A stretch of 64,000 nucleotides of DNA from Eledone cirrhosa (lineage: Eukaryota): the NCBI GenBank assembly GCA_964016885.1, contig OZ024748.1, forward strand, positions 46,934,001-46,998,000. The letters are read 5' to 3'. How positions within the stretch are numbered: position 1 is the stretch's first letter; every line of letters starts with the position of its first letter. This document shows, one piece after another, positions 10,054 to 54,120 of this stretch. The notes under the pieces were generated by a model. The model was not told where the DNA came from. It did not search any database and worked only from the letters and a program-made list of their open reading frames with translations. Made by a program: the position numbers and the translations under genes.

Positions 10054-13000
10054 TTTCATTTCATTTCATTTCATTTGAGTTTGAGTCCATGCTCAGGCCA
10101 AGTCATAGACTCCACCCTCAGAGTCTGGTGTGGTTGCCAGGTTGGATTCTCTGTTTAATTTTGACATGTGTAGGAGCGAGTTTGAGTCAGTTTGTGCTCG
10201 TTGTGTATATCCTGGGAGATGGGGTTCATCTCTAATGGTGCTTAAGTATGTATCCAGCTGCAATTTGAATGATTCCACACTGCATCCTGATAGATTTCTG
10301 ACATGTACTGGAATGGAGTTGAATAGTTGTGCCCCTCTAACCAACAGACTTGACTCTCGCAGGGTTTTTGCTGCCTGGCCAGCCCTTTTGTTGATTGGTG
10401 GTAGCTGGCAGCGTCTTCCGTGGCGCAGTGAGTGGTAGGTTTTGATACCAAAGTTTGGCACCTTTTGCTCTATCATTTTCCAAATGTATATAATTCGGTA
10501 TCGCTCAAATCTTCTTTCTATTGAGTACATCTTCAAGGTTCTGAGTCTTTGCCAATAGTCCAGGTCCCTCGTTTCTGAGAAGTATGAGGTAAAATTTCTT
10601 TGGAGCGATTCCATCTTAGATAGTTGGCCCTTTGTTGTTGGTGACCACAACTGAGAACAGTAGTCAATCCTCGGAAGTACCATACTGTTCCAGAGGGTTT
10701 TCATTGTTGAGGTATCTCTTGATTTGAAGGTGCGCAAGATCCACCCGCTGTACTTTCTTGCAGTAAGACAGACTGAGTCAAGGTGTTCCCTGAATTTTAG
10801 GCTGGTTCCCATGTGGATGCCTAAATCTTTCACACACTGTTTTTCCATTATTTGTTGTCCTGATGGGTTTCTGTAGTTTGTTGTATTTTTCAGATCTTGA
10901 TCTGTTCCGTAGCGAATTAGTTCAAACTTCTTATCATTGAACAACATGTTTGTTTCCTGCCATTTGTATATGGTGGTTAGGTCCTTTTGTAAGGCCTCTG
11001 TATCCACCTCGTCTTTGATTTGTCTCATGAGCCTCGTGTCATCAGCAAAGGATGAGACGTTGCTGGTTGTATCTTCATCTATGTCAGAGATGAGGATGAG
11101 AAACAGGATCGGGCCGAGTACTGTACCCTGAGGAACACTGCTGGTCACAGGTGATGGTGTTGAATGGGTTCCATTCACAGTGACTGTTTGAGTTCTATTT
11201 GTAAGGAACTCATGTATCCATGTACCAACTTTTCCTCCTACTCCTAGCTTTCGAAGTTTGTGTCCCAGGATGCCATGATCTACCTTGTCAAATGCCTTGG
11301 CAAAGTTGAGGTAAATAACATCTGTGTTGTATCCACTCCCTAGATTTTCTAGGATTTGGTCATGGTGTGCCAGTAGTTGGGAAAGACATGATCTACCTAA
11401 CCTGAATCCATGCTGATTGCAATTCATCAGATTGTTGGATTCCAGGAACTCAACCAGTTTTCCACGAACTATTCTTTCGAAGACCTTGATAATGTTCGAT
11501 GTCAGTGAGATTGGTCGGTAGTTCTTTGGTTTTGATTTGCTGTCCCCTTTATGTATTGGAGTTATGTGTGCTTCTTTATATGTATTTGGTATTTTGCCAT
11601 TCTCCATAGATTCCTTCCATATCATGTAAAGGGGTTTCAACAATTGTACCTTGCAGTTTTTAAGTATCATGGCATTGAAACCATCAGGCACCGCAGCCGA
11701 GTGCATGGAGAGCTTGTCTATGGCTCTTTCTATGTCTTCTGGGTTGAAATCAATGTCGGATAGGGTAGGTTTAGTATGGTCGATATCCTTGAACAATTCT
11801 CCTGGGTCATGGATCTTCATGGTTTCAGATGTCTCACTGAAGACACTTTCATACTGTTGACCCAACATTTCTGCCATTTCAATAGGGTTAATCACTACAT
11901 CCCCATTTTGTCTCTGGAGAGGTCCTATTGTTGACTTGGTATTCGAGTATTTCTTTGCAAAACTATAGAAACATTTTGGATTTTTCTTGATGTTTTCTAT
12001 GGCTCTCTTTTCCGCATTGTTACGTTCTTCATCATAGTGTTGTTTTAGATTGTCTTCTAATCTGTATATTTGGTCAAGGACTTTCTGTAGTTCATGTTTT
12101 GATGTCAGCTTAGATGTTTTGTTTCTTAGTCTTGACCTTTTGCGCATCAGGATCTTTCGCTCCCGTGGTACAGGTTTTTTTGTGGATTTGGTTTTCTTAA
12201 GAGGAATATTTTTGGCACATGTTTCTTCGATCTTGTTTAAGAATTTCTTGTGTTTATCTGGCCCAGTAAGGTAGAGATCCCAGTCAATGATTTGTAACTG
12301 GTTGTTAATAGTTTCCCAATTTGCCTGGTGATAATCATACCTGCATAGCTTTGGCATGTCCTTTTGTTTAAGAGTTGTGGCATTGGGCTCATTACCAATG
12401 TGTAAATGTATTTCAATAATATTGTGGTCTGAAAGGATTGTTGGGGTTGAGTGAAGGTCAAATAGCATGTCCTCGTTGTTGGTGAAAACCAAGTCGATCG
12501 TATTATTATTTCTAGTTGCTTCTGTCATCATTTGTTTGAGGTATAATTTCTCTGTGACTTCCAACAGTTTGGCTGCCTGTATTTGTTCAGCTTTTGTCCC
12601 CAGTTTTAGTATGTGTCCATGTGGCCAGATGATGTTAGGGAAGTTGAAGTCACCAAGGAGGATAATGTCTGGCATTGGACTCGCCATGTTTCCCAGAATT
12701 TGTTGGAGCTTTGTCAGTGGCTCAGTGAAGGATAATGTTGGGCTGTTTGGCGGTCTGTACATTATTGTTACAACTGTATTAAGTTGGATGATTTTTATGC
12801 ACAGCAGGTTGCAGTAGGCATTTGATTCATTGATAAGTTCTATGCATGCATAGGTATCATGGATATACATGATAACGCCCCCATGGGATCTGCCTTGTCT
12901 ATCACATCTGAAGATGTTGAATCCATTGATTGAGATTTCGCTGTTGCGGATGTTTTCGTTGAGATGACTTTCAGTAATTCCAATTATTTTGGAGTTGTTT

Positions 13001-13592
13001 TCTGTTGCTAATTCTTCCAAGAAAGGGACTTTACACTGTTTTGTTTTCGGATAAAGACCCTGGATATTTGCTGTTATTATGCTTGTTGTACCGGATACAT
13101 CTGCCCTATTGTTGGCAAGACTGTTGTAGTTGCTGGGACTGCTGACTGGATATTCGGTCTGCTGGGCTGTCTGTATTTGTTGTATGTGCCCTGTAAGTCC
13201 AGGTGTCAGCCTTTGTATCAATGTTGCCTGGTTTTGCTGAGTCATCTGTATGGAGTACAGCTGTTGTTGTAGTTGGTAGATTATGCCTAAAAAACTGCTT
13301 TCATTCATTACTGTATCGAATTTCTACGAGTTTGGGTTTGTTACAGCTGATGTGTGCAATTGAGTAGCATGATTTTCATTCACTGTTGAGCCATGTCCTG
13401 GTTTCTGCATTTTTGGGAAATGGTTTTCATACCCTGCTGAGCTTGGTCCTGGTGGTGTGGGTTCAGTAGTTTTTTATGCGAATTGTACCCTTCCGGTGCA
13501 TAAATTTGCAATTCTCGTCAAAACATTCTTTTTTTCTCAGCGAATTGCGGCACATCTTTGGGTGAAGGAGTTCACATTCTCGGCCATTTTGG
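10052..13592 (-). mobile_element. CR1/L2-group LINE, 5'-truncated inside ORF1, (AAATG)n 3' tail
   Basis: ORF2 below. ORF1 C-terminal Cys/His remnant CELLHPKMCRNSLRKKECFDENCKFMH at ~13490-13580. (CATTT)n on + strand at 10052-10076. Microsatellites on both flanks. Confidence 0.9.
10093..13308 (-). CDS. LINE ORF2: APE endonuclease + reverse transcriptase (1071 aa, open; motif A Asp reads Asn)
   Basis: APE: NIQGL, ITESHL, YRPP, LGDFNFP, IDLVF, SDHN. RT: NYRPISLTS, QHGFR, YLNFAKAFDKV, VPQGTVLGP, FADD, KDLG. Confidence 0.92.
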   Translation of the reverse strand: MNESSFLGIIYQLQQQLYSIQMTQQNQATLIQRLTPGLTGHIQQIQTAQQTEYPVSSPSNYNSLANNRADVSGTTSIITANIQGLYPKTKQCKVPFLEELATENNSKIIGITESHLNENIRNSEISINGFNIFRCDRQGRSHGGVIMYIHDTYACIELINESNAYCNLLCIKIIQLNTVVTIMYRPPNSPTLSFTEPLTKLQQILGNMASPMPDIILLGDFNFPNIIWPHGHILKLGTKAEQIQAAKLLEVTEKLYLKQMMTEATRNNNTIDLVFTNNEDMLFDLHSTPTILSDHNIIEIHLHIGNEPNATTLKQKDMPKLCRYDYHQANWETINNQLQIIDWDLYLTGPDKHKKFLNKIEETCAKNIPLKKTKSTKKPVPRERKILMRKRSRLRNKTSKLTSKHELQKVLDQIYRLEDNLKQHYDEERNNAEKRAIENIKKNPKCFYSFAKKYSNTKSTIGPLQRQNGDVVINPIEMAEMLGQQYESVFSETSETMKIHDPGELFKDIDHTKPTLSDIDFNPEDIERAIDKLSMHSAAVPDGFNAMILKNCKVQLLKPLYMIWKESMENGKIPNTYKEAHITPIHKGDSKSKPKNYRPISLTSNIIKVFERIVRGKLVEFLESNNLMNCNQHGFRLGRSCLSQLLAHHDQILENLGSGYNTDVIYLNFAKAFDKVDHGILGHKLRKLGVGGKVGTWIHEFLTNRTQTVTVNGTHSTPSPVTSSVPQGTVLGPILFLILISDIDEDTTSNVSSFADDTRLMRQIKDEVDTEALQKDLTTIYKWQETNMLFNDKKFELIRYGTDQDLKNTTNYRNPSGQQIMEKQCVKDLGIHMGTSLKFREHLDSVCLTARKYSGWILRTFKSRDTSTMKTLWNSMVLPRIDYCSQLWSPTTKGQLSKMESLQRNFTSYFSETRDLDYWQRLRTLKMYSIERRFERYRIIYIWKMIEQKVPNFGIKTYHSLRHGRRCQLPPINKRAGQAAKTLRESSLLVRGAQLFNSIPVHVRNLSGCSVESFKLQLDTYLSTIRDEPHLPGYTQRAQTDSNSLLHMSKLNRESNLATTPDSEGGVYDLA

Positions 13593-51777: not shown

Positions 51778-52007
51778 TTTTAGCTGAACATTGCTACTTT
51801 AACAAACAGAAGTAATCTATCTGACCTGTCAGGAGTGTGTGTGTGTGTATGTCTGTATGTGTCTATGCATATGTATATGTGCATATATATATGATTTGTA
51901 CGAAATTGCGTATATATTTATATATATATATAGTGAAAAATGGAACGAGAACAAAAGAGAGAGGTAGTACGAATAAAAGTTTATTAGTTTCACGCTCTTG
52001 GGGGGGA

Positions 52008-53044
52008 AGTATGTATACGTACATACATATATCTATACAGACGTACAGTAGTATGTGTATATATATATACATACATGCACACATATATATATGTACGTAT
52101 GGATTTACCAAACATTTATTATAATGCTCGGTTTGTTTGTAAAACATCCCGAATTAAGCCGTACAGTGTTTAGCAACCATCGTTGCCCTTTTGTTCAACA
52201 CTGAGAAAGGAACGATGTACTAGTTTCAAGCTTATTAGCTATCGTCAGCACCGTATACCTTTCTGCCTGATGATTGAACGTCTGAAAGTATATACTTTCC
52301 TTATGCATATTAACGGCTGAGCAGCCTAATTTGCATATCGAATGAGTTAATCGGCCGGGCGCACCGGAAACGATAAATGGAAAAAATGAAACGAAATTTC
52401 ATTTCTCACTCTTAATACGGCAGTTACTTAAATATAAGTATGTATACGTACATAAATATATGTATACAGACGTACAGTAGTATGTATATATATACATACA
52501 TGCACACACACACACATATATATATATATGTACGTATGGATTTACCGAACATTTAATATAATGCTCCGTTTGTTTGTAAACAAACATCCCGAATTAAGCC
52601 GTACAGTGTCGGACGATTAACTCACTCGATATGCAAATTAGGCTGCTCAGCCGTTAATATGCATAAGGAAAGTATATACTTTCAGACGTTCAATCATCAG
52701 GCAGGAAGGTATACGGTGCTGACGATAGCTAATAAGCTTGAAACTAGTACATCGTTCCTTTCTCAGTGTTGAACAAAAGGGCAACCATGGTTGCTAAACA
52801 CTGTACGGCTTAATTAGGGCTGGTTGTTTACAAACAGACCGAGCATTATAATAAATGTTCGGTAAATCCATACGTACATATATATATGTGTGAATGTATG
52901 TATATATATATACATACTACTGTACGTCTGTATACATATACATACTACTGTACGTATGTATACATATATGTATTTACGCATACATAGTTATATATAAGTA
53001 ACAGCCGTACTAAGAGTGAGAAATGAAATTTCGTTTCATTTTTT

Positions 53045-53047
<3 letters not shown>
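52008..53047. mobile_element. Family F: ~430-bp unit, ~1.5 tandem copies on minus strand joined head-to-head to one plus-strand copy
   Basis: 52009.. repeats at 52438... 52611-53047 is the reverse complement of the unit. Hammerheads at 52213-52253 (-) and 52714-52754 (+). Confidence 0.82.
52714..52754 (+). ncRNA. Minimal type I hammerhead ribozyme (family F)
   Basis: CGGTG-CTGACGA-TAGCT AATA AGCTT-GAA-ACTAGT-A-CATCG. Palindromic stem III, GUA triplet. Confidence 0.78.
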
Positions 53048-53112
<65 letters not shown>

Positions 53113-53115
<3 letters not shown>

Positions 53116-53659
53116 AAAGTTTTATTTAAGATTGTTGGGTTACAACGAGTAAATATTTTATAACTGATATAAAAGCACTCAACAGTTTCTGGAGTAGGTT
53201 TACGATATTAAACAAATGGAAACTATATTTACAAAACCATATTTATTTCGTTATATATATTTCTGGGATATCATATTAAAAATATGTTATGCCTTCCTCA
53301 GACAAAATACAATACATAAGCTGTTTTATAAATAATTAGTGACATACCTTGTAATAATGCAACTTCCTTTTAAAAAGTTGATTTACTACCAAATCAACTT
53401 TTTAAAAGGAAGTTGCATTATTACAATGTATGTCACTAATTATTTATAAAACAGCTTATGTATTGTATTTTGTCTGAGGAAGGCATAACATATTTTTAAT
53501 ATGATATCCCAGAAATATATATAACGAAATAAATATGGTTTTATAAATATAGTTTCCATTTGTTTAATATCGTAAACCTACTCCAGAAACTGTTGAGTGC
53601 TTTTATATCAGTTATAAAATATTTACTCGTTGTAACCCAACAATCTTAAATAAAACTTT

Positions 53660-53662
<3 letters not shown>
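53113..53662. mobile_element. Fold-back element family G: 272-bp arms, 6-nt loop, in pure (TA)n
   Basis: Arms 53113-53384 and 53391-53662 with ~2 mismatches. Confidence 0.9.
53466..53531 (+). ncRNA. Type I hammerhead ribozyme (family G)
   Basis: TATTTTGT-CTGAGGA-extended stem II (CATAT/ATATG)-GAA-ATATATAT-A-ACGAAATA. Confidence 0.7.
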
Positions 53663-53706
<44 letters not shown>

Positions 53707-53898: not shown

Positions 53899-54120
53899 AG
53901 AAGTTCTATTTAAATTGTTGGGATACAACAGGCAAATATTTTTATATCTGATATAAAGCACTCAACAAATTATTGGAGTAAAAATACGAAATATTAACAA
54001 ACGAAACTATATTTATAAAACCATATTTATTTCATTATACATATTTCAAGGACACCAAGTTAAATTATGGTGTGCTTTCATCAGATAAAATATAATATAG
54101 AGCACTTTTATAAATAAATA
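53899..54120 (-). mobile_element. Diverged single-arm family G copy with hammerhead at 54028-54092
   Basis: Minus strand TATTTTAT-CTGATGA-AAGCACACCA..TGGTGTCCTT-GAA-ATATGTAT-A-ATGAAATA. Confidence 0.75.

Follow-up and report, generated by a model that had tools for sequence, protein, structure and literature searches.

The locus occupies positions 52008-53047 of a 64,000-nt stretch of the Eledone cirrhosa assembly (contig OZ024748.1, positions 46,934,001 to 46,998,000), which we call the window and to which coordinates refer unless a contig is named. It is a composite insertion whose building block, a non-coding repeat of ~430 bp, bears a hammerhead motif. Three units of the repeat, their flanks and an adjoining fragment of another repeat family are arranged as follows, the tail-bearing 3′ terminus of a unit being called T1 and the tail-less one T2.

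51901..51922, (TA)n-type microsatellite of the left flank, adjoining the 3′ end of the family-2 fragment
51923..52007, minus strand, 3′ tail fragment of a second repeat family (family 2), 5′-truncated and running from poly-C to ...CATTTTTCAC; 478 first-look candidates, 93-95% identity
52008-52372, minus strand, unit A, complete in its 5′ part, the 3′ end tail-less (T2-type) at ...CATACTT
52373-52609, minus strand, unit B, 5′-truncated and, in the alignment, head-to-tail with unit A through the tail
52609/52610, head-to-head junction at which the 5′ ends meet, the arms being 252 nt out of register
52610-53047, plus strand, the plus unit, ~16 nt missing at its 5′ end, with a T1 3′ end ...TTTTTTCCAT and then (AT)n at once
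52863..52990, plus strand, internal TA/TG-rich segment of the unit, variable in length, with spurious microRNA matches in Rfam
53048..53112, (TA)n microsatellite of the right flank, read from the sequence

The junction at 52609/52610 is clean and both 3′ ends of the insertion face outward. The adjoining 85 nt on the left (51923-52007) derive from the other repeat family and form no part of unit A. The original prediction had described about one and a half head-to-tail minus-strand units, with a period of ~430 bp, joined head-to-head to a full plus-strand unit, and the alignment recovers this arrangement as unit A, unit B and the plus unit, the last at 52610-53047 with ~16 nt absent from its 5′ end. 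The repeat search gave a direct repeat (52015-52143 versus 52444-52572) with a spacing of 429, as well as two inverted pairs, one with arms of 216 nt at 52142-52357 and 52610-52825, 97% complementary and spaced by 252 nt, and a second of 132 nt at 52373-52504 and 52921-53052, 90% complementary. The several substitutions said to separate the units are also seen: unit A and the plus unit differ by 12 substitutions (96.5% identity in the alignment), and unit B is 94.4% identical to unit A and 90.9% to the plus unit.

A hammerhead with the palindrome ACTAGT had been described in each complete unit, with cleavage at a GUA site after A52749. The motif was found in unit A and in the plus unit, one on each strand, and not in unit B, and our own reading of the motif predicts cleavage at the same position. 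Unit B lacks a hammerhead because it is 5′-truncated, its truncation point lying ~45 nt downstream of the ribozyme cleavage site. The two motifs and the parts of the plus-strand copy are located as follows.

52212-52254, minus strand, hammerhead motif of unit A, with its core at 52242-52248 and predicted cleavage after the base opposite 52218
52713-52755, plus strand, hammerhead motif of the plus unit, predicted cleavage after A52749
52713-52718 and 52750-52755, plus strand, helix I, 6 bp
52719-52725, plus strand, core CTGACGA
52727-52738, plus strand, helix II, AGCT-AATA-AGCT
52740-52743, plus strand, GAAA
52743-52748, plus strand, palindrome ACTAGT

The conserved type I core (CTGACGA ... GAAA-CTAG-T-A) is present on both strands, as judged by C3-U4-G5-A6-N7-G8-A9, G12-A13-A14, the A15.1-U16.1 pair and H17 at the cleavage site. 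When this core was combined with a 4-bp helix II, a palindromic helix III and a 6-bp helix I in a single descriptor, the whole 64-kb window yielded exactly two matches, namely the sites above, whereas 200 dinucleotide shuffles yielded none. Rfam returned no hammerhead at the gathering score, nor at E <= 10 over 51900-53150, as is expected of a motif without a closed helix III, and the ribozyme call therefore rests on the hand-made descriptor and on comparative data, mostly one covarying base pair. Sub-threshold microRNA-like matches of Rfam on the TA/TG-rich segment were treated as low-complexity noise.

At the comparative level, the exact motif is retained in 41 of the 59 copies sampled from 30 loci, and in the alignment of the 59 copies 87.5% of the helix cells are paired, as against 41-60% when the partners are slid. 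The covariation score was 0.101 compared with 0.061 +/- 0.007 in shuffles, 0 of 500 of which reached it; such scores can be inflated by the relatedness of the sequences, and the signal comes mostly from one helix I pair (U-G 20, G-U 15, A-U 8, and C-G, G-C and U-A 1 each). Helix II is uninformative in this respect, given that it is nearly invariant.

Helices I and II measure 6 bp and 4 bp, and helix III is a single base pair closed by a palindromic tetraloop, which would extend it to 6 bp in a dimer only; position 10.1-11.1 is U-U. Newt satellite 2 is an example of a hammerhead that acts as a dimer. Metazoan type I hammerheads with a minimal helix III, as characterized in the available parts of PMC4209133, need a second copy for an extended helix III, and the present motif shares with them the 6-bp helix I, the 4-bp helix II, the 1-bp helix III with its palindromic 4-nt loop, an additional nucleotide following position 9 and the occurrence of opposite-strand motif pairs 100-700 bp apart. 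It departs from the same descriptions (PMC4209133, in part) in two respects, namely that U-U replaces G10.1-C11.1, a pair highly conserved in the hammerheads of Penelope-like elements (PLEs), and that an extra U precedes G12, unlike in the metazoan dimer hammerheads. The minimum-energy fold of the monomer (-10.6 kcal/mol) is a different fold from the hand-drawn hammerhead (-7.0 kcal/mol), and RNAcofold of two ribozyme segments cannot represent a shared intermolecular helix III, whose pairs cross. We treat the presence of the hammerhead as a motif-level call, with self-cleavage predicted. With one hammerhead per strand, the locus cannot give rise to an RNA of unit length by itself.

Other hammerheads with an ACTAGT helix III were looked for by pattern, and the matches listed were all deletion variants of the same family. 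Of the 100 matches listed, ~30 share one recurrent helix II deletion, CTGACGATAGCTTGAAACTAGTA, in which AATAAGCT is missing between the two AGCT repeats; they form a subfamily or arose by slippage more than once. CTGATGA and an AACA loop mark a second subfamily of the main family.

At the scale of the 3.0-Gb genome, 11,189 exact matches to the 31-nt ribozyme motif were counted, where a reversed control pattern gave 0, and a search with the unit gave 2,221 first-look candidates. The first 100 motifs listed form 78 clusters, of which 61 are single (a second exact motif is not nearby), 9 are one-strand, 7 are head-to-head (-+) and 1 is '+--'; eight of the one-strand clusters have a tandem spacing of 420-453 and the other is a '--' pair 1502 apart, and no close +- pair occurs among these 100. 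A tandem with an adjacent inverted copy was seen in most of the 30 loci examined, and tandem or inverted repeats at (TA)n were very common in these loci and in the longer arrays examined. For the purposes of annotation, the family accounts for tandem and inverted repeats beside (TA)n tracts in this genome.

The unit period varies from 420 to 483 bp. A search for longer tandem arrays had been proposed, and arrays of 2 to at least 38 units were found, among them L108 (C1:49583501-49589500), with 10 units and 10 ribozymes, and an array at C1:51.77 Mb with at least 38 one-strand ribozymes in 16 kb. Several arrays consist of identical units, which indicates that part of the family is young. Two independent young arrays alternate 420-bp and 422-bp variants in an A-B-A-B order. 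In a four-unit array the longest stop-free stretch is 72 codons and the GC content is 35%, and neither a tRNA gene nor a tRNA-like module was found in the unit search. Matches to the family were also obtained in other contig sets, in 3,917 contigs of X6 (labelled as another organism), 49 of X4 and 12 of X8, and the X6 contigs show its head-to-tail and opposite-strand joints; the family is thus present in at least one other organism-labelled set, the X6, X4 and X8 matches indicating presence only. In the X19 sequence set, presumed to be RNA, the matches were confined to the TA-rich segment, at less than 90% identity.

The 5′ ends of the copies are scattered over unit positions 1-408, and since there is no convincing clustering at the cleavage site we do not claim that cleaved RNAs serve as templates. 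As for the 3′ ends, 24 of the 69 units scored continue into the next unit, 20 end at T1 (...TTTTTTCC(A/G)TTTAT), 19 were flagged as ending at T2, ~57 nt earlier (...CATACTTATAT), ~12 of them cleanly, 5 have another end and 1 extends past the end of its locus. Exact counts over the genome gave 4,752 tail-bearing and 2,632 tail-less termini. Nearly all of the T1 and T2 ends examined are directly followed by (AT)n, and the 12 single-orientation arrays with a readable 3′ flank all have (TA)n at the 3′ end (12/12), 5′ (TA)n being present in some only. Part of the (TA)n may arise during the insertion itself.

In order to sample the outer ends of head-to-head insertions, we took adjacent minus-then-plus terminus pairs lying at most 6 kb apart in the first 75 Mb of contig 1. 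All 21 of the 21 insertions combined one T1 with one T2, where mixed pairs would be expected in ~49% of cases if the ends were independent, and we refer to this pairing as the one-tail rule. The present locus fits it: the right end is T1, and the left end is of the T2 type and adjoins the other-family fragment instead of (TA)n. The head-to-head partners are 96.9% identical here and 98.2% identical at L004, whereas between loci the median is 93.0% and the 95th percentile 96.5%; they are more alike than random copies, which points to an origin of the two arms in one event.

It could be argued that the repeat is an ordinary satellite, spread by unequal crossing-over or segmental duplication only, in which the hammerhead-like motif has no function. 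The 16-kb array, whose units are heterogeneous and in part segmentally duplicated at lags of 4 and 10 units, and a 40-kb region of contig 5, where 39 units include duplicated blocks, are what a satellite would show, and in some arrays part of the growth did take place at the DNA level. However, a satellite would have to be reconciled with more than 11,000 copies dispersed across all large contigs, with 3′ termini at two fixed positions beside (TA)n, with variable 5′ truncation, with mixed termini in every one of the 21 head-to-head pairs sampled and with a helix I pair that covaries across subfamilies, and we find this explanation scarcely credible.

The insertion reading being retained, the inverted arrangement itself could have two origins. 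The original prediction proposed fold-back, after reverse transcription around a circular or multimeric RNA; the arrangement would then stem from a snap-back of the nascent cDNA in place of priming on both target strands. At the sister locus L108 this stands, as there is a mirror-image junction with 393-nt arms, 98% complementary, around a 6-nt spacer; the neighbouring family-3 palindrome (53072-53384 / 53391-53703) also has a 6-nt spacer, and short palindromes within the unit (ACTAGT, AGCT, TGTACA, TATATA) could seed a hairpin. At the present locus it does not, given that the arms are 252 nt out of register and hence are not mirror images around the junction, so that two priming events fit better than snap-back; offsets of 74 nt and 100 nt were likewise measured at L111 and L110. 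Moreover, a self-copy ends where the first strand began, and one tail-bearing plus one tail-less end is not simply explained in that way. We therefore regard snap-back as rather unlikely at this locus, and both routes, fold-back and two primings, may occur in the family. In human LINE-1, the two 3′-OH of one target reportedly both prime on the RNA (twin priming), leaving inverted 5′ ends that meet. The two-primer logic and the meeting of inverted 5′ ends inside the insertion are the same here, whereas the enzyme family is another one, each arm may here comprise more than one tandem unit, and the start sites differ between the two ends.

Priming on both strands brings the locus close to what is described for PLEs. 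According to the available parts of PMC8557442, PLE insertions comprise partial tandems and an adjacent inverted, 5′-truncated copy, carry a 30-40-bp tail that is often at one end only, and show a bias for microsatellites or (TA)n. In vitro, both DNA strands are cleaved and extended, with priming on both, two internal RNA start sites delimit the tail, and the targets are AT-rich (PMC11167929). The present insertion has a partial tandem with an inverted copy, two 3′ ends and an AT-rich or (TA)n target, and it shares with the PLE insertions of both studies (PMC8557442, in part; PMC11167929) the 5′-truncated head-to-head partner, the optional one-end tail and the location of the hammerhead in the repeated part. 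On the other hand, the tail measures ~57 nt here versus the 30-40 bp given for PLEs in the accessible text of PMC8557442, PLEs have an RT-GIY-YIG frame and the unit is without one, and the unit shows no sequence similarity to the 40 PLE copies sampled. The strictness of the T1/T2 pairing was not found stated in the available parts of the cited papers, and since no difference in start site between the strands was seen in vitro (PMC11167929), it is not predicted by that work alone.

The same resemblance raises the question of whether the locus might be debris of the pLTRs of an autonomous PLE and not a separate non-autonomous family. PLE pLTRs carry hammerheads (PMC4209133, in part) and form tandem and inverted structures (PMC8557442, in part), and PLE genes are very abundant in this genome: a GIY-YIG profile gave 10,596 candidates, with all of 150 scored (150/150) above the cut-off and one intact open reading frame with both RVT_1 and GIY-YIG, so that our 40 PLE loci sample only some of thousands. 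Nevertheless, in none of these 40 loci, taken from the more than 10,000 candidates, is the unit contiguous with the reading frame; three of the 40 hold a copy of the family, parted from the frame by (TA)n or unrelated DNA, and these three copies are separate insertions. The sampled PLE copies also bear a different minimal hammerhead, CTGAAGATTGCGAAAGCATGAAAGTACTT, with AGTACT in helix III (6/40 loci: L046, L047, L050, L100, L103, L106). In arrays of 4 to 38 units, no open reading frame separates one unit from the next, and 5,866 exact matches to direct unit-to-unit junctions genome-wide argue in the same direction. The prediction would have failed if the unit occurred only as the terminus of a coding PLE and never as multimers, and what we observe is the reverse, with such a terminus at 0/40 loci and abundant multimers. 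An origin as pLTR debris is, in our estimation, very unlikely.

A non-coding, low-GC hammerhead repeat that occurs as monomers and multimers is an animal non-LTR retrozyme by the published definition, insofar as this is given in the available parts of PMC7229834, where such elements are non-coding tandem hammerhead units of 150-450 bp. The multimer had been called retrozyme-like from this one locus, and the genome-wide occurrence of the non-coding hammerhead repeat, from monomers to arrays of at least 38 units, bears this out. The repeats are tandem, measure a few hundred bp and each have a type I hammerhead; of the traits non-coding, low GC and without LTR, PBS or PPT, agreement was found in coding capacity, GC content and the lack of a tRNA-like module. 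It is therefore well supported that the family is a non-LTR retrozyme, an already described kind of element, and it is probably a non-autonomous parasite of PLEs. Described animal retrozymes are, like the present family, short, non-coding and low in GC with a type I hammerhead (PMC7229834, in part), and range from monomers to long arrays with thousands of copies per genome; a dependence on PLEs has likewise been proposed for them (both in the accessible portions of PMC7229834 and 10.64898/2026.07.22.740005), and the preprint derives them from PLE terminal repeats (10.64898/2026.07.22.740005, in part). The units here are 420-483 bp long compared with the described 150-450 bp (PMC7229834, in part), and helix III is of the minimal, dimer-dependent kind of the amphibian units and not of the efficient invertebrate kind (PMC7229834 and 10.64898/2026.07.22.740005, available parts). 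Expression and circular RNA are traits of the published systems, whereas the family here is described at the level of DNA. Neither the two fixed 3′ termini nor the one-tail rule, both of which we document for this family, was found in the available parts of those two retrozyme papers (PMC7229834, 10.64898/2026.07.22.740005).

Taking these lines together, the ~430-bp family is probably copied from a longer-than-unit RNA and inserted at (TA)n by a PLE reverse transcriptase-endonuclease that is predicted to prime on both strands. The family would be mobilised in trans by the PLE protein, and reverse transcription would start at two internal sites, T1, after ...UUUUUUCC(A/G)UUUAU, and T2, after ...CAUACUU(AUAU), with one priming event per strand of the cut target. 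The two primings would leave the 3′ ends facing outward (T2 left, T1 right) and the 5′ ends meeting at 52609/52610, and the hammerhead would act as a dimer in the processing of multimeric transcripts. Assistance of hammerhead activity by protein has been reported (PMC11167929).

The nature of the template is less clear-cut. The autonomous PLE studied in vitro mainly used multimeric RNA that was unprocessed, and none of the RNA-seq reads terminated at the ribozyme site (PMC11167929); we put the chance that an uncleaved linear multimer served as template here at about even. The template could also have been a monomeric or dimeric RNA circle, formed by hammerhead cleavage and ligation and copied by rolling-circle reverse transcription. 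In L111, which has 4 plus 3 units, there are 0-1 mismatches across both inverted arms, and the 6 units of L110 show 0-3 mismatches. L108 contains a perfect A-B-A-B-A-B series, in which the odd units are identical, the even units are identical and A differs from B by 13 substitutions, and an independent A/B alternation with a different A/B pair is found in L109, as would result if a two-unit template were copied again and again. The 3′ ends are internal and do not coincide with a fixed RNA end, and the monomer folds as a highly paired circle: a natural 432-nt monomer reached -121.6 kcal/mol with 65% of its bases paired, against a mean of -93.2 +/- 5.8 kcal/mol in 100 shuffles (z = -4.9). However, copying would begin with the three 3′-most units of L108, and these depart from the perfect repeats by 2-5 substitutions, so that a later DNA-level amplification fits better there; an uncleaved multimeric transcript of a uniform array would yield the same products, and the preference for unprocessed multimers in vitro also weighs against circles. 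A circular template is accordingly an appreciable possibility that falls short of being probable.

A more elaborate proposal, which we advance tentatively and hold to be improbable, is that every head-to-head insertion is the work of one dimeric enzyme complex, which would initiate at the tail site for one strand and at the tail-less site for the second, and that the uniform or A-B young arrays are rolling-circle copies of monomeric or dimeric RNA circles produced by the ribozyme. If this were true, the family would be a natural record of RNA integration by Penelope-type enzymes, and genomic footprints alone would show RNA circles to be transposition intermediates of animal retrozymes. The family is a handy natural data set, being large, partly young and equipped with two sharp 3′ ends that are strictly paired, and in combination with RNA data or a purified PLE protein it could help to ask whether different RNA start sites are used on each DNA strand, whether a circle or a multimer is copied, and what role the hammerhead plays.

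In regard to the neighbouring repeats, the exact junction between the family-2 fragment and unit A has 1 match in the genome and is thus unique; it reflects either a template switch or an insertion next to an older fragment. Family 2 (loci L064-L078) is a non-coding repeat of ~770-860 bp with 3,220 first-look candidates. It has a minimal hammerhead of its own, CCTGAAGAAGGGCTTATGCCCGAAACGTC, with ACGT in helix III, ~130 nt before its 3′ end, which likewise adjoins (TA)n. At both of its ends the tail is similar to the one in the main family (AAGAG-GTGA-AA ... CGTT-CATTTTT-C), and a recognition module may be common to the two.

To the right of the insertion, 53072-53703 is a near-perfect palindrome with 313-nt arms, 99% complementary, around its spacer of 6 nt. 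It belongs to a third family, with 2,091 first-look candidates and 99-100% identity among copies across the genome; the arrangement is head-to-head with the outer ends at (TA)n, and no hammerhead motif was noticed in the palindrome. Another copy of this family, more diverged, lies at ~53909-54064. Yet another repeat, ending in ...CTGTTATTTTAATA beside (TA)n, recurs tail-to-tail with the main family, in the 3′ flanks of L003, L007 and L012 and in the 5′ flanks of L009 and L022. It appears that several families have (TA)n tracts as a common landing site. Elsewhere in the window, the minus strand at 10093-13323 holds an open frame of 1,076 codons with Exo_endo_phos and reverse transcriptase domains, which is a LINE-type retrotransposon unrelated to the retrozyme locus.
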